Source: a virus
Reading direction: 5' to 3' (one strand)
DNA: 36,138 nt
Virus record (IMG/VR): IMGVR_UViG_3300029928_000023
Coordinates: 1-36,138 of that record
The position numbers were made by a program, and so were the translations under genes. A model generated the notes under the pieces. It ran no database searches. It was given only the letters and a program-made list of their open reading frames with translations, and had not been told where the DNA came from. How positions within the stretch are numbered: the first letter of the stretch is position 1; every line of letters begins with the position of its first letter. Of this stretch, positions 20,912 through 34,960 are shown piece after piece.

Positions 20912-21706
20912 TTACTCTGTCAGAAATTTATTTACAAAATACTGCTGTCCCTTACCGGTAACCTTTGGTGTTCTGTTGATCCGGATTGAACCATCCGGGT
21001 TATTGATTGTGCTTTCTTTCACCTCAAACAGTTTCATCTCCATACTTCTCTGAGTTGGCATATTCCAATCTGAGCCATTCCGTTTGATAAGATAGCCATT
21101 GTCACGAAGCCACTTAAACAAACGCTTCTGACCGATGTTTACACCATTCTGGCTTATCAGCTTTGCAAGATCTCCGATCAATATGGATGTGTGACTTGCA
21201 GCTACCGCATCAGCGAATATTGCCTTTGGCTTCATAGTCTCTATCTGCTTGTTCCTCTCAAGTATCTTGTTCTGGGCTACCTGTAAGGCTCTGGCCATGA
21301 GCTCATCATCTGACATTGTTTCCTGTCCGGCTATGTACCAGCCGTTCTTGCGGATGGATGGAAGCACCTCACTTGTCACCCAGCGTTTGAATCTATGCAG
21401 TTTTTCTATTCTTTCATCTACAAGGGAGTCATTTTGTGACACACCCTTTGCTTTCTGCGGCTGCATTTGAAAAAGCAAAGAGTACAAGCCACTTTCATTG
21501 ATAACTATCATGTTTTGTTTTCCGCCCGGGGTCTCAATTTGTGATATTCTCTTGTCATCATCATCCACACTGGAAAGACTTCTCCTGTAATTTGTGTCTC
21601 CAAATGACTCACAAACATCCTTTCCGACAAGCCAAGGCTCACCATTCTCTATCAATGTTCTAATTTCCCCAAACTCTTTGTTCTGAAATATCTTTAATTC
21701 GTTCAT
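20912..21706 (-). CDS. Antirepressor (Bro-N domain + KilAC/ANT C-terminal domain)
   Basis: N-terminus IFQNKEFGEIRTLIENGEPWLVGKDVCESFG. C-terminus AASHTSILIGDLAKLISQNGVNIGQKRLFKWLRDNGYLI...TPKVTGKGQQYF. The start is set at ATG 21706 after AAGGAGA. Confidence 0.8.
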   Translation of the reverse strand: MNELKIFQNKEFGEIRTLIENGEPWLVGKDVCESFGDTNYRRSLSSVDDDDKRISQIETPGGKQNMIVINESGLYSLLFQMQPQKAKGVSQNDSLVDERIEKLHRFKRWVTSEVLPSIRKNGWYIAGQETMSDDELMARALQVAQNKILERNKQIETMKPKAIFADAVAASHTSILIGDLAKLISQNGVNIGQKRLFKWLRDNGYLIKRNGSDWNMPTQRSMEMKLFEVKESTINNPDGSIRINRTPKVTGKGQQYFVNKFLTE

Positions 21707-21778
21707 GTAATCAATCTCCTTTTCTTCTTGTTTTTTGAATCGGAGCACCATATAATTAGCTTACAAGGTACTCCTTGC

Positions 21779-21831
21779 AATAAGACAATTTCCTTGCTGG
21801 CTAGGCGAATTGGGATTGTCTTATTTTTTTG
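21779..21831 (+). terminator. Plus-strand-oriented terminator-like hairpin just upstream of the antirepressor start
   Basis: AATAAGACAAT (21779-21789) pairs perfectly with ATTGTCTTATT (21815-21825), followed by TTTTTT. No U-run follows it in the minus-strand reading. Confidence 0.4.
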
Positions 21832-21977
21832 TCTCTTTCATCTGATGTAAAATCAATCAATAGTTCAACAAAGTCCTTGCTCAGACTTTTGTTGCCTCTT
21901 AAATTGACTACTGCCTCCTGAAAAGATTCATCTGATAATTCGATCATCAACTTGATGATTTCCATAAGTTCAAGCAT
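21801..21977 (-). CDS. Small hypothetical protein (58 aa), first gene of the antirepressor operon; not in the ORF track
   Basis: My translation is MLELMEIIKLMIELSDESFQEAVVNLRGNKSLSKDFVELLIDFTSDERDKKIRQSQFA. AAGGAGG lies 7 nt upstream of the ATG. Confidence 0.55.
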   Translation of the reverse strand: MLELMEIIKLMIELSDESFQEAVVNLRGNKSLSKDFVELLIDFTSDERDKKIRQSQFA

Positions 21978-21997
21978 ATGTATACCTCCTTAATTTT

Positions 21998-22057
21998 ACG
22001 ACATAATATGTCGTTTTATACATCTGTATACTACGCTATAATATGTCGTAATGTCAA
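21998..22057. promoter_or_regulatory. Divergent overlapping promoters with two 17-bp operators (second immunity switch)
   Basis: O1 ACGACATAATATGTCGT (21998-22014) is a perfect palindrome. O2 ACGCTATAATATGTCGT (22033-22049) matches it 15/17. The plus-strand -10 is TATAAT at 22037-22042. The minus-strand promoter is TTGACA (22057-22052), N18, TAGTAT (22033-22028). Confidence 0.6.
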
Positions 22058-22079
22058 TAGCTTTTTGGAGGTAATTTTT

Positions 22080-22355
22080 ATGTTTAATGATAGACTTCGG
22101 GCAACTCGCATTTCTAGGAAAATAACTCAGCAACAAATTGCTGATGCTATAGGCATTGCTTTGCGTTCATATCAGCGGTACGAAAGTGGGGACATCGAAC
22201 CTCCGTATATATCTTTAATTTCTCTTGCAAATTTTCTTAATGTTCCAGTTGACTTTCTTTTAGAGCGTGACGATTATCTTCGTTCTCTCGGAGTATCCGT
22301 TGATGTATCCCTAAAGTGTCCTCCAAGACGTCCCAATTCTCAAAAACACCATTAG
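22080..22355 (+). CDS. XRE-family HTH regulator (Mnt/C2-analogue of the second switch)
   Basis: ITQQQIADAIGIALRSYQRYESGDIEPPYISLISLANFLNVPVDFLL. The start is set at ATG 22080 after GGAGGTAA; the track's 5' extension has no RBS. Confidence 0.8.
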   Translation: MFNDRLRATRISRKITQQQIADAIGIALRSYQRYESGDIEPPYISLISLANFLNVPVDFLLERDDYLRSLGVSVDVSLKCPPRRPNSQKHH

Positions 22356-30499: not shown

Positions 30500-30690
30500 G
30501 CTTTTCTCCTGCCTACCAGATAAGGGAGTGTCAGCAGCACTCCGACAAATGCCTGTCCAAGGTGTGCATACCACGGTTCCATGATCCTCATTTCTTCCGC
30601 AAACGCCACCGAGCTTGCCGCTCCATACACCAGAACGAATCCAGCAAAGAACATGATCCCAACAGCGCACTTACATATCTTCTTTTTCAC
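30487..30690 (-). CDS. Small two-TM membrane protein
   Basis: Hydrophobic segments AVGIMFFAGFVLVYGAASSV and LGQAFVGVLLTLPYLV. GTG 30690 is preceded by GGGGTGAG. Confidence 0.4.
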   Translation of the reverse strand: MKKKICKCAVGIMFFAGFVLVYGAASSVAFAEEMRIMEPWYAHLGQAFVGVLLTLPYLVGRRKAWLR

Positions 30691-30711
30691 TACCAACTCA
30701 CCCCTTTCCTT

Positions 30712-30924
30712 TCATCCCATAGCCTTTATGAGATCATTTAACTGCTCTATTGTGATGCCCTGTCTCGCTGCAAGCTTTCCCGGAGAAATGTTATAAGTCC
30801 AGATGCTTGACATCTTGATCGCATCACCTATGTCCAATAAGTTCCTCTGCATTCCAATCCGGATAAACTGAGGGGAGCATCCCATTACCTCAGCCGCCTG
30901 ATTCGGTGTTATCTTCTTTACCAT
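30712..30924 (-). CDS. Small HTH DNA-binding protein (excisionase/Xis-like, tentative)
   Basis: ITPNQAAEVMGCSPQFIRIGMQ is a helix-turn-helix pattern. AAAGGAG RBS. 70 aa. Confidence 0.45.
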   Translation of the reverse strand: MVKKITPNQAAEVMGCSPQFIRIGMQRNLLDIGDAIKMSSIWTYNISPGKLAARQGITIEQLNDLIKAMG

Positions 30925-31018
30925 GTCGATTTCTCCTTTCTTTTCTTGATTCCCATTTGTCGAAAATCAACCTTCCGACAAATGTTCCAATGGCTATGCC
31001 AATGATTGTGCTTAACAT
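30890..31018 (-). CDS. Possible 42-aa peptide with an N-terminal TM helix and a basic tail
   Basis: My translation is MLSTIIGIAIGTFVGRLIFDKWESRKERRNRHGKEDNTESGG. The ATG overlaps the upstream stop (ATGTTAA). Its 3' end overlaps the Xis-like gene by 35 nt. Confidence 0.3.
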   Translation of the reverse strand: MLSTIIGIAIGTFVGRLIFDKWESRKERRNRHGKEDNTESGG

Positions 31019-31140
31019 GATTCTATTTTTATCCTTTTTCTGCTGAAACAAATACATCTACCAAATGGCAGATTGATCTGTAACCATGATTCAACGTATC
31101 TGTTCCCATTCTCCGTGTATTTTGTTATGTAGTGATGCAT
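31012..31140 (-). CDS. Possible 42-aa peptide
   Basis: My translation is MHHYITKYTENGNRYVESWLQINLPFGRCICFSRKRIKIESC. AAAGGAG RBS upstream. Confidence 0.3.
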   Translation of the reverse strand: MHHYITKYTENGNRYVESWLQINLPFGRCICFSRKRIKIESC

Positions 31141-31163
31141 GTCTCTCCTTTCTCACCGTTTTG

Positions 31164-31172
31164 TGTTACAAT
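31164..31172 (+). promoter_or_regulatory. Extended -10 element TGTTACAAT for plus-strand moron 1
   Basis: TGnTACAAT lies 27 nt upstream of ATG 31199, followed by AAAGGAGGG. The -35 is weak. Confidence 0.45.
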
Positions 31173-31198
31173 AATAAAAAACCAAAGGAGGGTTTCTT

Positions 31199-31543
31199 AT
31201 GCCTGTCACAAAATCAGATATCAAAATATTGAATTATGTCCACCATCGTCACTTTCGACCTGTCACCTATGCGGCACTTTCTGGTAAATTCAGCAAGCAT
31301 GAAGTAGACAATCTTATCAAAGGTGAACTTTTGTCCTACGTTCCTATAATCGTTGATTATCAGGGAATCCCATCGGAAAAGCTTGCCGCCGAATCTGCAA
31401 TATCCCTTACCAAAAATGGTATATATGTGGTTGAACAGAATCAGTGGTTCGATACCAAATATCTGCTTACGCAAATAATCGTCCCTATACTGGTTGGTGT
31501 CGCAAGTGCCGTCATTACAACAGTCTTATTACGATTACTGTAG
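31199..31543 (+). CDS. Tail-anchored membrane protein, moron 1 (N-terminal wHTH-like region, single C-terminal TM)
   Basis: AAAGGAGGG RBS. C-terminus IIVPILVGVASAVITTVLLRLL. It is on the opposite strand to the surrounding early genes. Confidence 0.65.
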   Translation: MPVTKSDIKILNYVHHRHFRPVTYAALSGKFSKHEVDNLIKGELLSYVPIIVDYQGIPSEKLAAESAISLTKNGIYVVEQNQWFDTKYLLTQIIVPILVGVASAVITTVLLRLL

Positions 31544-31655
31544 CTATGCCTATGGCTGCTCCTATCAGTCCCATCACTGCAGGTCTGATATAATCACACC
31601 AAAGATCTTCCATGAAGTATGGCTCATTAAGTTTTTTCTTGATCTTCTTGAACAT
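31515..31655 (-). CDS. Possible 46-aa tail-anchored peptide, convergent with moron 1
   Basis: My translation is MFKKIKKKLNEPYFMEDLWCDYIRPAVMGLIGAAIGIATVIVIRLL. Weak AAAGGAAA RBS. Its 3' end overlaps moron 1 by 29 nt. Confidence 0.35.
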   Translation of the reverse strand: MFKKIKKKLNEPYFMEDLWCDYIRPAVMGLIGAAIGIATVIVIRLL

Positions 31656-31678
31656 CTATGTTTTCCTTTCTTGTTATG

Positions 31679-31687
31679 TGTTACAAT
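31679..31687 (+). promoter_or_regulatory. Extended -10 element TGTTACAAT for plus-strand moron 2
   Basis: The same 10-mer, GTGTTACAAT, occurs upstream of moron 1. It is followed by an AAGGAGG RBS and ATG 31714. Confidence 0.45.
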
Positions 31688-31713
31688 GGTAAAAACTAAG
31701 GAGGTTCGCATCT

Positions 31714-32061
31714 ATGTATGAATACGATTACGATAAAGTCACTCTAAATTTGGAAGAAAAATACAAACTCTTTATTACCAAACACAAAAAGAAAACAACC
31801 GAAAAGTTTTTAGGTGATTCTAAAGACTACTTACTTGGAATTCGTTTCATTGAAGCCAACTACTCTGGTCAGTGGAATGAAATAGGTGAACACATACCCG
31901 ATGGTACATATTCTGTAACCTGGTATTATGGCCGTTATCTTATATGGAAAAGGAATAAAGCTTTTTATGGAATGCTTTCATCGTTTGTAACTCCCATAGT
32001 TGTTTCCATAATTACATCAGTACTAACAGTAATAGTCCTACGCATATTAGGCTTAGGATAA
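31714..32061 (+). CDS. Tail-anchored membrane protein, moron 2
   Basis: AAGGAGG RBS. The C-terminus FVTPIVVSIITSVLTVIVLRILGLG resembles the moron 1 anchor. Confidence 0.65.
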   Translation: MYEYDYDKVTLNLEEKYKLFITKHKKKTTEKFLGDSKDYLLGIRFIEANYSGQWNEIGEHIPDGTYSVTWYYGRYLIWKRNKAFYGMLSSFVTPIVVSIITSVLTVIVLRILGLG

Positions 32062-32248
32062 GAATTGCTGTTCTGTATCTGCGTTCCTTCTTGTAAAGGT
32101 GTTCAAAGAACTTCATTTCATCATCTGAAACTGGGAAAATCTCCTGGAAGGCTTTTCGTTCTTCTAGGATTTTTTCGTTCTTCATTTCTTTTTTGATGAC
32201 TTTCATGTCCCCTGCTTCCAATGTTTTGTTTAACTGTTCTGTTGTCAT
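32012..32248 (-). CDS. Tail-anchored early protein (78 aa), convergent with moron 2
   Basis: AAGGAGAAAGGAG RBS. C-terminal TM helix AILILSLICVGLLLLVLM. Its 3' end overlaps moron 2 by 50 nt. Confidence 0.55.
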   Translation of the reverse strand: MTTEQLNKTLEAGDMKVIKKEMKNEKILEERKAFQEIFPVSDDEMKFFEHLYKKERRYRTAILILSLICVGLLLLVLM

Positions 32249-32263
32249 GGTTCTCCTTTCTCC

Positions 32264-32292
32264 TTGTCGTCCTCACCATTTCACCCTATAAT
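32264..32292 (+). promoter_or_regulatory. Sigma-70-type promoter for moron 3
   Basis: TTGTCG (32264-32269), N17, TATAAT (32287-32292). Confidence 0.45.
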
Positions 32293-32339
32293 TTCCGTAG
32301 GTGCTACCAACACCAATTCATACGAAAGAAGGTGAAACT

Positions 32340-32513
32340 ATGTCAAAAGATTCCTTTAAAGATGCCTTGACAAATATTGAAGACATTGCACTGGCTTACA
32401 CAGTCAAGACATCAACTGCCACAACACCTGAGCAGTTCCTTGATGATTATGTGAAAAATAAAAATTCATTTATTGAAATCAAGAAACAACATGGTGATAA
32501 GTGGATGATCTAA
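32340..32513 (+). CDS. Small soluble hypothetical protein, moron 3 (57 aa)
   Basis: ATG 32340 is preceded by GAAGGTGA. Its stop overlaps the stop of the convergent minus-strand gene by 4 nt. Confidence 0.5.
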   Translation: MSKDSFKDALTNIEDIALAYTVKTSTATTPEQFLDDYVKNKNSFIEIKKQHGDKWMI

Positions 32514-32788
32514 AACTCAAATCTGGCAATTGATTTAAGAACCTCTTTTGCCACATCGAGCAGGTGTAGTGAGTGCTTTACCGAGTATTTCTTTGCTCCA
32601 AGTACTTTTAAGATGTCCTTGATAACGCACTCCTCGCCGTCATACGTTTCCGACAATTCACAGTTCTTTGCGATATAATAGAAAATTATCTCCTCGTCAG
32701 TGAGAACTTTCCTCACCTCAGAGAATTCTTCTATATCTTTCGTCTTCTCTGCTATATCTACCAACTTTGAATTTATACTGTTTGTCAT
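32510..32788 (-). CDS. Hypothetical early protein (92 aa)
   Basis: AAAGGAGAG RBS. First gene after the Cro-like regulator. Confidence 0.55.
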   Translation of the reverse strand: MTNSINSKLVDIAEKTKDIEEFSEVRKVLTDEEIIFYYIAKNCELSETYDGEECVIKDILKVLGAKKYSVKHSLHLLDVAKEVLKSIARFEF

Positions 32789-32802
32789 GGCTCTCCTTTC
32801 TC

Positions 32803-32831
32803 TTATTAGTATTCATTTTGTGAACTAGTAA
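32803..32831 (-). promoter_or_regulatory. Degenerate duplicate of the PR promoter/operator cassette, downstream of the Cro-like gene
   Basis: On the minus strand, TTACTA-gttcacaaaatgaatac-TAATAA. The 17-nt spacer matches the PR spacer at 16 of 17 positions. Confidence 0.45.
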
Positions 32832-33025
32832 GGCAAAAAAATATTTTCCCTAGGGAAACTACAAATATCTGCATACATTCTTAATTCTGCCTCTTTCATC
32901 TTTACCTTACCGCTTTCCCAATTACCAACAGTAATACGAGAAACGCCCATTTTATCAGCTATATCCTGCTGTGAAAGCCCAGCATTTACTCTAACAGCTG
33001 ATAATCTTATCTTTAAACTATTCAA
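32825..33025 (-). CDS. Cro-like XRE-family regulator
   Basis: LSQQDIADKMGVSRITVGNWESGK. TTG start 8 nt after GAGGAGG. Divergent from the CI-like gene. Confidence 0.75.
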   Translation of the reverse strand: MNSLKIRLSAVRVNAGLSQQDIADKMGVSRITVGNWESGKVKMKEAELRMYADICSFPRENIFLPY

Positions 33026-33058
33026 TATTTCGCCTCCTCTCTTTCATCTTGTAATTGC

Positions 33059-33087
33059 ATTATAGTATTCTTTTTGTGAACTGTCAA
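33059..33087 (-). promoter_or_regulatory. Early lytic promoter (PR-like) with an operator in the spacer
   Basis: On the minus strand, TTGACA (33087-33082), N17 (gttcacaaaaagaatac), TATAAT (33064-33059): both hexamers are perfect consensus. Confidence 0.75.
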
Positions 33088-33116
33088 GCATAATGAAAAC
33101 TTTTTTTGCTTTTCGC

Positions 33117-33145
33117 TTGCTATAAGTATTCATTTTGTGTATAAT
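33117..33145 (+). promoter_or_regulatory. Repressor promoter (PRM-like) with a third operator copy
   Basis: TTGCTA (33117-33122), N17, TATAAT (33140-33145). The spacer contains AGTATTCATTTTGTG. Confidence 0.65.
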
Positions 33146-33171
33146 CAAGACATAAGAAAGGACGTGATCAG

Positions 33172-33546
33172 ATGGGTGCAAACCAATTTGCTAAATTATT
33201 AAAATATTATCTTATGCTAAACGACAAAACTCAGAGTGATTTAGTCAACGATCTTGGATATGAAAAATCAACAGTATCAAATTGGTGCTCTGGTGCAAGA
33301 GTTCCCAAAATTGATACAATTATAGATATTGCTAAGTACCTGCATGTTGACCCGGGAGATTTAATAGTCGAATCGGAAAACAAACCTACATATTACTTTG
33401 ACGATGAGACAGCTAAAAAGGCACAAGAGATATTTGAGAACAAGCAGCTCTCTCTTCTCTTCGATGCTGCAAGAGATGCTGAACCGGAAGATCTTGAAAC
33501 CGTTCATACAATGCTCATGGCTCTGAAAAACAAAGAAAAAAGATAA
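33172..33546 (+). CDS. CI-like XRE-family prophage repressor (no S24 peptidase domain)
   Basis: KTQSDLVNDLGYEKSTVSNWCSGARVPKIDTIIDIAKYLHVDPGDLI. Divergent from the Cro-like gene. The C-terminus is helical and lacks a Ser/Lys autocleavage domain. Confidence 0.8.
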   Translation: MGANQFAKLLKYYLMLNDKTQSDLVNDLGYEKSTVSNWCSGARVPKIDTIIDIAKYLHVDPGDLIVESENKPTYYFDDETAKKAQEIFENKQLSLLFDAARDAEPEDLETVHTMLMALKNKEKR

Positions 33547-33613
33547 TGTACAAAAAACATCCCACGGTATTTGTTATTGTATCTACGACTACGTTACAAG
33601 GGGGATGAGTTAA

Positions 33614-33850
33614 TTGTATGATATAAATGTACAGATGATGGATCTGAAGACTACAAAAGTTAAAGAAACTGTTACCTGCAATGAAGATGGTTCATATACT
33701 ATCTTTCTTAATACACGATTCACACAGGAACAGCTTAACGATGCTTATATCCATGCACTCAACCATATCATTAGAGCGGACTTCGATAAACACACCAGCT
33801 CTGTAGATACCATTGAGGCTTATGCGCATGGGTTAAATAAAATTTTATAA
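33614..33850 (+). CDS. Short ImmA/IrrE-like protein with HAxxH in place of HExxH (tentative)
   Basis: TTG start after AAGGGGGATGA. EDGSYTIFLNTRFTQEQLNDAYIHALNHIIRADFD...IEAYAH resembles short ImmA-type partners of XRE repressors. The motif codons are cat gca ctc aac cat. Confidence 0.45.
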   Translation: MYDINVQMMDLKTTKVKETVTCNEDGSYTIFLNTRFTQEQLNDAYIHALNHIIRADFDKHTSSVDTIEAYAHGLNKIL

Positions 33851-33872: not shown

Positions 33873-34319
33873 ATGAACATTACGGAATATATAAAAACAC
33901 GAGTTGATGATCAGATTGCATGGTATGATAAAAAATCCGTAACATGCCAGCGTTGGTATAAGGTCTTTCAGGCAATAGAAATTTTCATAGCCGCCAGCAT
34001 TCCTGTACTCTCCGGTTATGCCAGCAAGTATGGTGTAATCCCTTTGATTATAGGTATTGAGGGAGCTATTATAACTATAGTTGAATCTATCACCAGATTG
34101 TACAAGTTCCATGAAAACTGGATAGAATACAGAACTACATGCGAACTTCTGAGATATCAAAAACATTTGTATCTTACAGGCTCTGCACCATACAATGCAG
34201 AACCTGAAAGCATTGAAAATATTTTTGTAAGGAATATTGAGAATATTATATCTTCTGAAAATAATAAATGGAAAGCTGTCAATATGCAGGAAACAACAGA
34301 GAAAAAAACTGTTAATTGA
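33873..34319 (+). CDS. DUF4231 / SLATT-like two-transmembrane protein
   Basis: [13 protein letters not shown]...[21 protein letters not shown]...[19 protein letters not shown]...[23 protein letters not shown] is the DUF4231 architecture. GGGGGGA RBS. The gap to the upstream gene is only 22 nt. Confidence 0.7.
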
Positions 34320-34543: not shown

Positions 34544-34960
34544 ATGACTATATATAATATTTTTATAAGCCACGCTTGGAAATATTCCGAACATTACAAA
34601 AAAATTGTCCAGTGGCTTGATGAGGCACAGGCAGAGGGTAAATTCAGATGGAAAAACTACTCTGTTCCAGAACATGATCCACTTATTGATCCAAACAGTT
34701 CGGCCGGTAAAACCAAACTAAAATCAGAACTTAACGAGCAGATCCGACCAGCAACAAAAGTTATTATCCTTGCTGGTATGTATGCTGACTACAGTGATTG
34801 GATTGAATATGAACTTACCACCGCCGTATGCATGAATAAGTGCATAATTGGCGTAAAACCTTGGGGACAGGAACGTGTCGCTGCTATTATAACTAATAAT
34901 TCCGACACTATTGTAGGTTGGAATAAAGATTCCGTTATTAATGCAATTTTAAATTCTTAG
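34544..34960 (+). CDS. Stand-alone TIR-like domain protein (DUF1863 / ThsB-like, 'Tir chaperone'-type)
   Basis: YNIFISHAWKYSEHYKKIVQWLD...NYSVPEHDPL...VIILAGMYADYSDWIEYELTTAV...IIGVKPWG...VGWN. The S-x-W-x-x-x-E-L region aligns with the TIR catalytic-Glu motif. Confidence 0.7.
   Translation: MTIYNIFISHAWKYSEHYKKIVQWLDEAQAEGKFRWKNYSVPEHDPLIDPNSSAGKTKLKSELNEQIRPATKVIILAGMYADYSDWIEYELTTAVCMNKCIIGVKPWGQERVAAIITNNSDTIVGWNKDSVINAILNS

Follow-up and report, generated by a model that had tools for sequence, protein, structure and literature searches.

Convergent two-gene accessory cassettes downstream of cro in the early operon of a temperate phage from gut Lachnospiraceae

Morons are promoter–gene–terminator units that are present or absent between conserved neighbours in temperate phages (the concept of Hendrix and Juhala, reportedly reviewed by Cumby et al. 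in 2012, as cited in PMC11318856). Superinfection exclusion by Gram-positive prophages involves membrane proteins such as Sie2009 and Ltp, which are anchored at the N terminus or carry a lipoprotein signal and whose genes lie between the integrase and the repressor. ToxR/ToxS and TcpP/TcpH each combine a winged-helix regulator tethered to the membrane with a small membrane protein as its partner; ToxR and TcpP are of the OmpR type, possess sizeable periplasmic sensor domains and are encoded in operons with co-directional partners. Type I toxin–antitoxin loci of Firmicutes prophages and plasmids, including txpA/RatA, bsrG/SR4 and par Fst/RNAII, have convergent transcripts with overlapping 3′ ends. 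In BstA/aba, a prophage defence comes with its own self-immunity: BstA is a soluble protein, and the aba DNA element is located within bstA (PMC8585504).

The locus described here shares features with each of these systems. It lies at positions 31141–32513 of IMGVR_UViG_3300029928_000023, which was analysed over a window of 36,138 nt (the whole stretch of DNA considered) and which derives from a temperate phage of gut Lachnospiraceae, the nearest assembly being from Coprococcus; prophages related to it are found in Coprococcus and in further Lachnospiraceae. The PR operon holds, immediately after cro, a stack of three accessory, independently exchangeable convergent two-gene cassettes, each consisting of a rightward gene (M1–M3, in the direction of cI) and a leftward gene (E1–E3) with overlapping 3′ ends (Table 1). 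We hold this anatomy, and the accessory nature of the cassettes, with high confidence. All six open reading frames were found exactly where an initial annotation had placed them, and the overlaps that it gave for M1/E1, M2/E2 and M3/E3 were exact (29, 50 and 4 nt). Strong ribosome-binding sites had been assigned to the plus-strand genes; a strong Shine–Dalgarno (SD) sequence was found upstream of all six. The genome in the window is otherwise uniformly minus-strand, and the M genes are antisense to it. The G+C content of the cassettes is slightly lower, at 0.37 versus 0.41–0.44. A neighbour of the cassettes, a ThsB-like TIR protein, does match PADLOC.

Table 1. Features of the cassettes and of the adjoining immunity region (positions in the window)
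Feature	Position	Strand	Remarks
M1 promoter	31162–31172	+	extended −10, TGTG-T-TACAAT; −10 hexamer at 31167–31172
M1	31199–31543	+	114 aa; tail-anchored predicted winged helix; SD AGGAGG at 31186–31191
E1	31515–31655	-	46 aa; basic N terminus, glycine-zipper C-terminal TM; 29-nt overlap with M1
M2 promoter	31677–31687	+	second copy of TGTGTTACAAT (repeat D6); 37 nt upstream of ATG
M2	31714–32061	+	115 aa; C-terminal TM anchor homologous to M-family tail
E2	32012–32248	-	78 aa; charged helical region and C-terminal TM; 50-nt overlap with M2
Left 21-bp direct repeat, TTGTCATGGTTCTCCTTTCTC	32242–32262	.	E2 start codon and SD; bounds M3/E3
M3 promoter	32264–32292	+	TTGTCG-17-TATAAT; 10/12 consensus matches
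M3	32340–32513	+	57 aa from the ATG of the initial annotation; soluble, acidic; SD GAAGGTGA at 32328–32335
E3	32510–32788	-	92 aa, soluble; stop overlaps M3 stop (CTAA, 4 nt)
Right 21-bp direct repeat, TTGTCATGGCTCTCCTTTCTC	32782–32802	.	E3 start codon and SD; bounds M3/E3
Putative repressor operator, third copy, AGTATTCATTTTGTG	32808–32822	+	between cro stop and E3 start
cro-like HTH	32825–33025	-	first gene of early operon; HTH_3 match, 1e-8
PR	33059–33087	-	perfect TTGACA-17-TATAAT
cI-like repressor	33172–33546	+	HTH_26, HTH_3 and Phage_CI_repr matches; same strand as M1–M3

All six open reading frames are under purifying selection, with dN/dS of 0.13–0.44 against relatives. The values are 0.20–0.23 for M1, 0.16 for M2, 0.13–0.14 for M3, 0.18–0.27 for E1, of which homologues exist, and 0.25 for E3. 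Homologues reach 50% identity in a word search, and the reading frame is unbroken in 16 of 17 related contigs for M1 and in 6 of 6 for M2. The claim that the plus-strand frames are real genes is supported by these dN/dS values, by the depth of the family and by the conservation of the promoters.

Each plus-strand gene carries its own predicted sigma-A-type promoter. The element said to be common to M1 and M2 was recovered as the 11-mer TGTGTTACAAT at 31162 and 31677, which occurs just twice in the 36-kb window, each time exactly 37 nt 5′ of the respective ATG; the third promoter that had been proposed, TTGTCG-N17-TATAAT, was likewise located. The pattern TRTGnTAnAnT holds the same position 5′ of M-family genes in L001, L015, L024, L028, L030, L035, L036 and L038, the sequences themselves having diverged. 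The M2 promoter is kept in L018, L019 and L021, its counterpart in L030 being TGTGATATACT. Plus-strand promoters, whether of the extended −10 or the −35/−10 type, hold their position even where the identity of homologues falls to about 30%. For M3, the promoter with its 5′ UTR (32253–32342) matches the head of an unrelated cassette gene in L024 and L026 at 92% identity. The M promoters showed no regulator-binding site. On the minus strand, consensus scans of 30600–33700 returned PR as the sole sigma-70-like promoter and none for the E genes, which would therefore be readable only from PR. A search for intrinsic terminators 3′ of the M genes gave none that is conserved, with nothing conserved after M1 or M3; the sole hairpin with a T-run after these genes (32142–32169, 3′ of M2) is missing in L030. 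An Rfam search of 30600–33700 matched no family. The putative operator AGTATTCATTTTGTG is present in three exact copies (at 32808, 33064 and 33125), where 0.32 would be expected by chance even with two mismatches. An operator-like site within M2 (31783–31797, two mismatches) was dropped as a regulatory element because it falls within lysine-rich coding sequence and because several different immunity regions are found with the M2 cassette.

Structure and remote-homology searches, which the initial annotation had suggested for the 114-aa M1 protein, gave both winged-helix matches and a family. By profile comparison, M1 belongs to the uncharacterised phage family phrog_12206, the HMM of which matched M1 (5.8e-5), M2 (3.7e-5) and 34 of 68 M-family members (best, 2.8e-10); an exhaustive HMM search recovered about 90 clusters at 50% identity with full-length matches. 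The AF2 model of M1 (pLDDT 88.8) contains helices at residues 5–16, 24–30 and 33–41, a four-strand wing and a long helix at residues 72–113. Foldseek matched this model to MepR, MexR, PadR and RTP (probability 1.0, E of 2e-4 to 5e-3, TM of 0.45–0.60). As modelled, the fold is a MarR/PadR-like winged helix with a long helix that leads into a C-terminal membrane anchor. Like PadR subfamily-2 and MarR proteins (BC4206, 4esb; Rv3488, 5zi8; MepR, 4l9n), the modelled protein combines an N-terminal winged helix and a long C-terminal helix in about 110 aa. By contrast, it lacks membership of these families at the sequence level, and its C-terminal helix is a predicted membrane anchor rather than a soluble dimerisation helix. 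The Pfam MarR and PadR HMMs did not match M1, HTH_24 was found in just 2 of 68 relatives and a PDB sequence search with the M-family profile gave no match. Searches against GenBank phages, by tblastn with M1 and with P0021 and at the DNA level with the region, gave no match. The N-terminal domain of M1 carries almost no net charge, the helix presumed to serve recognition lacks conservation within the family and no candidate operator for M1 binding was identified. DNA binding by M1 is no more than a possibility raised by the predicted fold.

The TM segment of M1 spans residues 93–111 and leaves three residues beyond the membrane; across the M family, the anchor carries the motif P-x3-[GAS]-x2-[ST]-x3-T with an invariant proline. 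Substrates of regulated intramembrane proteolysis, the pathway of site-2 proteases such as RasP, likewise have a proline within the membrane. Single C-terminal TM anchors had been claimed for M1 and M2, and terminal TM helices for their partners. Hydropathy bears out both claims: a hydrophobic stretch (19-residue Kyte–Doolittle mean, 2.3–3.0) is present at the C terminus of M1, M2, E1 and E2, with the maximum at the extreme end in all four, and the same measure yielded no hydrophobic TM stretch in M3 or E3. All four proteins display the hallmarks of tail anchoring (a single C-terminal TM, few residues after it and no N-terminal signal), which supports the assignment of M1 and M2 as tail-anchored, with predicted membrane insertion. 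The further claim that the hydrophobic tails of each pair are encoded on complementary strands of the same DNA stood in part, the shared stretch amounting to 29 of about 66 nt in M1/E1 and 50 of about 72 nt in M2/E2. As in ToxR/ToxS and TcpP/TcpH, the modelled M1 would place a cytoplasmic winged helix on a single TM, next to a small membrane protein that may modulate it. It differs from ToxR and TcpP in ending three residues past the membrane, and in that its partner is convergent and, as the predicted promoters suggest, differently regulated. M1 and M2 resemble Sie2009 and Ltp by analogy, being small, membrane-anchored and presumably prophage-expressed; unlike those proteins, to which they show no homology, they have a C-terminal rather than an N-terminal or lipoprotein anchor, and their genes occupy a different position.

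E1 belongs to a family of glycine-zipper peptides of 30–46 aa; its TM spans residues 25–43. A convergent E1-type peptide overlaps the 3′ end of the M gene in 17 of 18 distinct M1-type sequences, with a coding overlap that varies from 11 to 41 nt, and partner peptides of 30–46 aa are found on M-family 3′ ends in L024, L028, L030, L033, L035, L036 and L038. No partner peptide was detectable for the M-family gene of L041 (Acetatifactor). In seven of eight partner peptides, the motif P-x3-G-x2-G-[AS]-x-I-G is present, with small residues along one helix face. An hhalign comparison of the E1 family with the M-family tail gave a probability of 86% and a score of 29.6, above all 150 of 150 column shuffles (maxima 20 and 25, 150 trials each). 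E1 has the appearance of the M-family juxtamembrane/TM module on its own, and similarity between TM segments is a weak basis for homology. The subtypes of tail and peptide co-vary: VG..SA tails occur with G..GAAIG peptides (4/4), and AIITT or SVVTT tails with G..GSFIG peptides (3/3), a pattern that may reflect only two clades. E1 is the one cassette gene also found alone, occurring without M1 in L018, L019 and L021 (the phages of L062, L063 and the L019 contig) and in L047, L069 and L071, which means that E1 has a role independent of M1. On balance, M1 and E1 are probably functional partners; that E1 is an antagonist or mimic of M1 is a tentative proposal, against which we lean slightly.

In the second and third cassettes, the pairs are differently composed. 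M2 has largely only the tail in common with M1: hhalign against the M1 family gave 95% with the tail and 9% without it. The AF2 model of M2, built from a six-sequence alignment, was too poor (pLDDT 57) for a winged helix to be claimed. E2 accompanies M2 in 8 of 8 distinct M2-type sequences with a constant overlap of 50 nt, and the pair also occurs on the Sak/resolvase backbone of L030. M3, for which no family match was found, keeps its ATG start in L019 and L026. E3, for which a PDB sequence search gave no match, is always found with M3 (L008, L019, L026/27, L043 and L054–57). Mimicry could apply to just one of the three pairs, since E2 is unlike the tail of M2 and both proteins of the third pair are soluble.

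Comparison with related phages, which carry zero to three cassettes with sharp junctions, indicates that the unit of exchange is the whole convergent pair. The initial annotation had described morons interleaved with early genes. Its view that the plus-strand genes are accessory holds, since they are missing from close relatives; its interleaving does not, since E2 and E3 were never found without their own M genes and each pair is gained or lost whole. Its suggestion that genome comparison would reveal insertions was likewise borne out as to presence and absence among relatives, and corrected as to the inserted unit, which is an M+E pair and not a single gene. In a sample picked through the neighbouring YqaJ gene, close relatives have zero, one or two cassettes in varying combinations; in this sample no M gene occurs without its E gene, nor E2 or E3 without their M genes. 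Mosaic breakpoints map to 31162, about 31655–31670, 32261/2 and 32781/2; on its left, the M1/E1 cassette has its mosaic boundary at the M1 promoter. M3/E3 is flanked by 21-bp direct repeats (D2/D3) built from a Shine–Dalgarno sequence and a start codon, and L016, L017 and L018 jump from 32261/2 to 32782 of the window, a precise deletion of this cassette. As the breakpoints fall on the conserved SD/start of minus-strand genes, co-inheritance of an M gene with its overlapping E gene could be partly mechanical. The M1/E1 pairing is nonetheless kept across different phage backbones in which the M proteins are 26–60% identical to M1, and the M/E linkage spans backbones with different replication and integration modules. 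In this phage group, the architecture itself, a promoter-bearing gene with a PR-read convergent partner in one overlap phase, houses at least five unrelated sets of genes; all 13 long overlaps are in the same phase (n mod 3 = 2), in which codon position 2 faces position 3. The cassettes thus resemble morons in that their M genes have their own conserved predicted promoter, are present or absent among near-identical relatives, show a slightly lower G+C content and, as read from the sequence, are oriented such that expression would be possible with the lytic operon under repression. They differ from morons in that the unit is a convergent pair with one half in the lytic operon, in that no terminator of their own was found and in that the codon phase of the 3′ overlap is fixed.

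The best explanation as a whole, one that we consider evenly balanced between right and wrong, is that the cassettes are pairs of a lysogeny gene and a lysis gene with mutually exclusive expression. In the lysogen, CI would shut PR and the M promoters would fire unopposed; M1 and M2 would reside in the membrane and serve the prophage, the leading guesses being exclusion/defence or membrane-tethered regulation. With PR on, during infection or induction, polymerases would run head-on through E3, E2 and E1 and across the M promoters. Such traffic would yield the E partners and, through collision or antisense pairing, reduce expression of the M genes. E1 may pack on the small-residue face of the M1 TM helix (P-x3-G-x2-[GS]-x3-[GT] in both) and so change or neutralise M1; the candidate face residues are P96, G100, S103 and T107 in M1 and P25, G29, G32 and G36 in E1. 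If E1 neutralises M1, the phage's own lytic growth would escape M1 action; if M transcription and PR-driven E transcription oppose each other, each cassette would be a lysogeny/lysis pair wired for mutual exclusion. By analogy, this proposed logic is that of BstA/aba, a prophage-expressed effector with a linked element that spares its own lytic cycle; unlike BstA/aba, to which there is no homology, M1/E1 has a defence phenotype that is hypothetical. Searches of the six proteins against PADLOC, Pfam and NCBIfam returned sub-threshold noise only and no known defence family, and we regard a defence or exclusion role of the cassettes as somewhat unlikely.

Among the alternatives, the one that survives best, although we judge it unlikely, is that the M genes are single-gene morons placed between ordinary early genes, that the E genes are unrelated lytic genes and that the overlaps are genome compaction, aided by the sole antisense codon phase that allows hydrophobic residues on both strands. 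The occurrence of E1 alone in at least five loci fits this explanation, as do the recombination joints on SD/start repeats of minus-strand genes, since anything between two joints moves together; the single phase of the long overlaps would then be a signature of coding economy and not a functional one. However, E2 and E3 never occur without M2 and M3, and E1-family peptides remain adjacent to M genes at 26–60% M identity on unrelated backbones, a depth at which mosaic shuffling would be expected to break a merely mechanical linkage. The likeness of E1 to the M tail also exceeds what composition would give.

We find it very unlikely that M1/E1 resembles a type I toxin–antitoxin system, with E1 (perhaps also E2) as a membrane toxin and the 3′ part of the M transcript as an antisense antitoxin RNA. 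E1, like the toxins of such loci, is a small hydrophobic peptide (46 aa, below the 60-aa criterion) whose gene converges on another transcript with a 3′ overlap in a Firmicutes prophage setting, and the lack of a terminator between M1 and E1 means that the overlap at the RNA level is probably more than 29 nt. By contrast, purifying selection acts on the antisense partner, a conserved gene for a protein whose predicted fold is confident, the coding overlap (11–41 nt) can be very short, no E1 promoter of its own was found, with PR alone on that strand, and no Rfam family matched. Moreover, L069 has E1 without any convergent gene. Classical type II toxin–antitoxin pairs had also been considered and were dropped, there being no family match and the genes being convergent, not operonic.

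Equally improbable, in our view, is that the genetic switch is the main target of the cassette promoters, the encoded proteins being secondary. M1–M3 and cI share one strand with no strong terminator between them, so transcripts from the M promoters could extend into cI, antisense to E3 and cro on the way. They would then be a constitutive counterpart of lambda PRE or oop, or of the pR/pL pair that converges in phage 186. Like oop/PRE (antisense to cII/cro) and 186 pR–pL, the cassette promoters point head-on into the early transcript, within about 1.5 kb of the switch; unlike those elements, they lie in dispensable cassettes outside the core switch. The strand layout and the absence of conserved terminators fit such a role, as do the conservation of the M3 promoter and 5′ UTR as a unit before unrelated genes, the third operator between the cassettes and cro and the established interference between convergent promoters in coliphage 186 (PMC5001618, PMC6593788). 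Against it, every cassette is missing from close relatives whose immunity region is the same, which implies that the switch works in their absence; the proteins are under purifying selection and belong to large families, and a weak terminator-like hairpin lies within the cro antisense (32967–32984). Finally, that the plus-strand frames are chance antisense frames in an otherwise minus-strand genome is refuted by their dN/dS (0.13–0.23), the full-length matches in a family of about 90 clusters, the conserved SD and promoters, the confident predicted fold and the intact frames.

Returning to the lysogeny/lysis pairs, the most specific form of the proposal is that M1/E1 constitutes a new two-component phage module, in which a tethered winged-helix protein of the prophage is switched off or re-purposed in lytic growth by a PR-driven micropeptide, with overlapping convergent transcription keeping the two states apart; we consider it distinctly unlikely in this full form. 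A literature search for tail-anchored winged-helix prophage proteins or convergent early-operon cassettes returned nothing relevant. If true, the E1 micropeptide would be a dominant-negative microprotein that acts inside the membrane as a copy of the juxtamembrane/TM module of M1 itself, and phages with E1 only would carry counter-defence against M-carrying lysogens.

Accessory genes of immunity regions make up much of the defence, counter-defence and host-manipulation repertoire of temperate phages, and in phages of gut Lachnospiraceae hardly any of them have been characterised. The convergent-pair architecture can be searched for elsewhere. With its roughly 90 clusters, phrog_12206 is a sizeable new protein family that has a confident predicted fold and no Pfam, NCBIfam or PADLOC annotation, and a peptide of 30–46 aa that resembles the membrane module of such a protein may regulate it. 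If confirmed, lysogeny-ON/lysis-OFF wiring would give annotators a reason to keep short antisense frames in phage early regions, and would provide a way for prophages to carry potentially self-harmful functions safely.

We find that the three pairs of small genes directly downstream of cro in the early operon are modular units, each comprising a plus-strand gene (M1-M3) and a convergent minus-strand partner (E1-E3). The six open reading frames are all found where the initial annotation had placed them, with 3′ overlaps of 29, 50 and 4 nt, and the strong ribosome-binding sites it noted on the plus-strand genes are matched by good Shine-Dalgarno sequences at all six, on both strands. On comparative grounds, all six are genes. 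Their dN/dS against relatives from IMG/VR and metagenomes is 0.13-0.44, an uninterrupted M1 frame occurs in 16 of 17 related contigs and an uninterrupted M2 frame in all six, and word-based searches pick up homologues down to 50% identity for M1 and 41% for M2. In L008, the one exception for M1 and a viral contig (4001-4177), M1 stops prematurely after codon 58 and the neighbouring E1 is intact.

Features of the region and related loci
Feature	Coordinates or locus	Strand	Description
M1	31199-31543	+	114 aa
E1	31515-31655	-	46 aa
M2	31714-32061	+	115 aa
E2	32012-32248	-	78 aa
M3	32340-32513	+	57 aa
E3	32510-32788	-	92 aa
M1+E1 cassette	31162 to ~31655-31670		mosaic joints
M2+E2 cassette	~31655-31670 to 32261		mosaic joints
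M3+E3 cassette	32262-32781		mosaic joints
M3-type cassette head	L024 4396-4484; L026 5464-5553		92% identity to window 32253-32342
PR	33087-33059	-	perfect TTGACA-17-TATAAT; predicted driver of early operon
SLATT/DUF4231 two-TM protein	33873-34319	+	PF14015 at 2e-21, SLATT_1 at 1.5e-12
ThsB-like TIR protein	34544-34960	+	PF08937 at 1.8e-16, PADLOC ThsB at 3e-13
Xre-type HTH ORF	21978-22355	+	likely start ATG 22082, after GGAGG
Bro-N/KilAC antirepressor	20912-21751		faces Xre-type HTH gene
M family	window		extended -10 TGTGTTACAAT
M family	L001		extended -10 TGTGATATAAT
M family	L015		extended -10 TGTGCTATACT
M family	L024		60% identity to M1; 29-nt overlap; extended -10 TATGTTATAAT
M family	L028		49% identity to M1; 29-nt overlap; extended -10 TGTGTTATACT
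M family	L030		extended -10 TGTGATATACT
M family	L033		36% identity to M1; 41-nt overlap
M family	L035		28% identity to M1; 29-nt overlap; extended -10 TGTGCTATAAT
M family	L036		34% identity to M1; 11-nt overlap; extended -10 TGTGCTATACT
M family	L038		26% identity to M1; 41-nt overlap; extended -10 CGTGTTATACT

DNA comparison with relatives revealed sharp mosaic joints that delimit three cassettes, each holding one M/E pair. In 80 contigs picked by the adjacent YqaJ gene without regard to cassette content, close relatives carried none of the three (L058-L060, L065-L067), M3/E3 only (L043, L054-57), M1/E1 only (L044, L048, L064), M2/E2 only (L045), M2/E2 with M1/E1 (L049, L050, L061), M2/E2 with E1 (L062, L063) or E1 alone (L047, L069, L071). 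Among the close relatives in this sample, no M occurred without its E, no E2 without M2 and no E3 without M3. The initial annotation had regarded the minus-strand partners as early genes with morons set between them; this view is not supported, as the mobile unit is the whole pair. A fourth cassette type, 72 aa/58 aa, is present in L058 and L042. Other convergent pairs of small genes occupy the early region of related phages (L024-L027 3825-4866; L033 3699-4345; L035 1784-2907, with two pairs). Among them are a KTSC-domain gene facing a 56-aa partner, the 72-aa/58-aa pair, two pairs of membrane proteins (146-aa/93-aa, 53-aa/82-aa) and one pair of 108 aa and 107 aa. Given these pairs and the pairwise gain and loss, genome comparison shows the 'zipper' to be a construction common to these phages in general, and its minus-strand genes to belong to the cassettes and not to the early backbone. 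The 55-aa early gene g55 (30890-31057, minus strand) also has a glycine-zipper TM segment, IIGIAIGTFVG, and shares a DNA repeat, D7 (30993-31017 and 31543-31567), with E1; in L047 (2911-3126), recombination at D7 has produced a 71-aa E1-g55 fusion, with deletion of M1 and a 42-aa gene.

The M/E1 layout recurs where M is only 26-60% identical to M1, on backbones as different as RecT/YqaJ, PcfJ/REP_ORF2-G2P and SMC/AAA. At all six such loci (L024, L028, L033, L035, L036 and L038), M lies antisense, directly downstream of cro, and a convergent gene for a 31-46-aa peptide overlaps its 3′ end; in L030, the third M-like gene is overlapped over 17 nt by a 30-aa partner that had not been called. Among distinct sequences, an E1-type partner is present for 17 of 18 M1-type genes, the sole exception being the Acetatifactor copy L041, for which none was detected, and E2 accompanies all eight M2-type genes, always with a 50-nt overlap. 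This co-inheritance could be partly mechanical, since the joints fall on minus-strand Shine-Dalgarno/start repeats: a 21-bp direct repeat, TTGTCATGG(T/C)TCTCCTTTCTC, brackets the M3/E3 cassette and forms the start codon and Shine-Dalgarno of both E2 and E3.

As the initial annotation had it, M1, M2, E1 and E2 terminate in strongly hydrophobic 19-mers, and hydropathy marks M3 and E3 as soluble. An exhaustive HMM search with the M1 profile yielded 90 clusters (50%-identity representatives), almost every one 100-124 aa long and matched over its full length. Of 68 members aligned, half match phrog_12206, a PHROG of unknown function, and none has a convincing Pfam match; as regards annotation, the M1 family is new. 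The M1 model built with this 68-sequence alignment is confident (pLDDT 88.8), with three helices and a four-stranded wing at residues 5-70 and an unbroken helix at 72-113, the final 20 residues of which form the TM segment. Foldseek matched it to winged helices of MarR-family (MepR, MexR) and PadR-family proteins and RTP in the PDB, and to 'DNA binding protein' and 'transcriptional regulator' entries in BFVD (E ~2e-4, TM-scores ~0.5-0.6). The modelled fold thus resembles MarR/PadR regulators, whereas their sequence signature is absent from M1. Conservation peaks in the juxtamembrane/TM stretch, above the winged helix, at E79, F84, an invariant P96 and T107. M2 aligns to the M1 family with an hhalign probability of 95%, which drops to 9% without the tail, and the structure model of M2 is poor; we therefore claim for M2, from sequence, an M1-family tail but do not claim a common fold. 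E1-type peptides share the motif P-x3-G-x2-G-[AS]-x-IG, and their family aligns to M residues 81-113 (hhalign probability 86%, score 29.6, against column-shuffle maxima of 20 and 25 for the whole peptide or the TM block only, 150 trials each). Small residues are equally spaced in the two families (P, +4, +7, +11), and the M-tail subtype co-varies with the E1 subtype across the seven available pairs.

The hydrophobic tails of each pair had been proposed to occupy complementary strands of the same DNA. They do so, but partially, over 29 of ~66 nt and 50 of ~72 nt. We collected 13 long convergent overlaps (11-68 nt) in the window, L024, L028, L030, L033, L035, L036 and L038, representing five or more unrelated cassette types; the length of every one equals 2 modulo 3, and in the two 4-nt overlaps the partners share their stop codons. 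In the 2-modulo-3 phase, codon position 1 lies opposite position 1 and position 2 opposite the partner's wobble position, and an NTA-type codon on one strand becomes ATN or NTA on the opposite one, which allows both products a high content of Ile, Leu and Val. A product of the in-frame antisense phase is hydrophilic (mean hydropathy -1.6), with 11 stops per 100 codons. The overlap phase explains the complementary-strand tails as coding economy and by itself implies no function.

Promoter predictions place the M genes under their own control. The motif reported as common to two genes corresponds to the 11-mer TGTGTTACAAT at 31162 and 31677, which has just these two copies in the window, each 37 nt upstream of an ATG (M1, M2), and the element described for M3 is TTGTCG-17-TATAAT at 32264-32292. 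Phylogenetic footprinting predicts an extended -10 of Gram-positive type always 25-36 nt upstream of the M-family ATG, even where the flanks have fully diverged. The M3 promoter and 5′UTR recur at the head of an unrelated 72-aa gene in L024, L026, L042 and L058, and a compensatory change preserves pairing of a small hairpin at the UTR start (GGTG...CACC vs GGTGC...GCATC); the alignments identify this segment as a conserved, reused 'cassette head', whose 5′-end mRNA hairpin may act as a 5′ stabiliser. Consensus scans of 30600-33700 gave no minus-strand promoter other than PR. No conserved terminator was found downstream of the M genes, so the M/E overlap is probably larger at the RNA level than in coding sequence. 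A 10-bp hairpin with a T-run at 32142-32179 (plus strand), ~80-110 nt 3′ of the M2 stop and antisense within E2, is kept in L018 and lost in the 77%-identical L030, which makes it doubtful as an M2 terminator. Like morons, the cassettes have their own predicted promoters and vary in presence; unlike morons, they show no conserved terminator and are gene pairs. A type I toxin-antitoxin reading fails on two points, the non-coding antitoxin and a promoter belonging to the toxin gene. PADLOC matched none of the six proteins to known defence families.

The phage in the window is temperate and tailed and codes nearly all on the minus strand; its nearest genome assemblies are an uncultured Coprococcus and an Acetatifactor (both Lachnospiraceae), and other relatives, in contigs of human-gut metagenomes, are integrated beside a sortase gene. 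Its early operon runs cro (32825-33025), E3, E2, E1, three small genes, YqaJ exonuclease, DUF1351, RecT, DUF1064 and replisome organiser. The plus strand carries a cI-like repressor (33172-33546), a 78-aa gene and, further downstream in the lysogeny module, the SLATT protein followed by the ThsB-like TIR protein; the last two resemble a SLATT-TIR pair for conflict or defence carried by a prophage. The likely operators are three identical copies of AGTATTCWTTTTGTG (32808-32822, 33064-33078, 33125-33139): two overlap the -10 boxes of the divergent promoters (PR and the cI side), and the third, 240-300 bp off between the cro stop and E3 start, resembles the distal operator of other phages for repressor looping or roadblock. 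A fourth operator-like site, inverted and with 2 mismatches, within the lysine-rich coding stretch of M2 (31783-31797, minus strand) is probably chance, as the immunity regions that accompany M2 are of several kinds. Elsewhere, the Xre-type HTH gene faces a small minus-strand ORF and the antirepressor, and the intergenic stretch (~22005-22052) contains the palindromic ACGACATAATATGTCGT along with a further copy of its half-site; 20912-22355 is possibly a second, immI-like control region.

The anatomy of the cassettes is solid, and the mechanism we propose from it is testable but unproven. The layout predicts two mutually exclusive expression states. With CI on the three operators, PR would be silent and the M promoters would fire unopposed; M transcripts might continue through cro antisense toward cI, M1-M3 and cI being on one strand. 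With PR active, polymerases crossing E3, E2 and E1 would meet the M promoters head-on and the E proteins would be made; convergent promoters of phages are well known to interfere with each other (PMC5001618, PMC6593788). Against the proposed mechanism, E1 is also found alone, E2 is unlike M2 and, as noted, the joint inheritance may be partly mechanical. Most likely, we infer, every cassette would link a gene of the prophage phase with a partner of the lytic phase, and the E1 peptide would act on the M1 membrane module that it resembles; such logic has a precedent in BstA/aba, a prophage defence with built-in self-immunity (PMC8585504).
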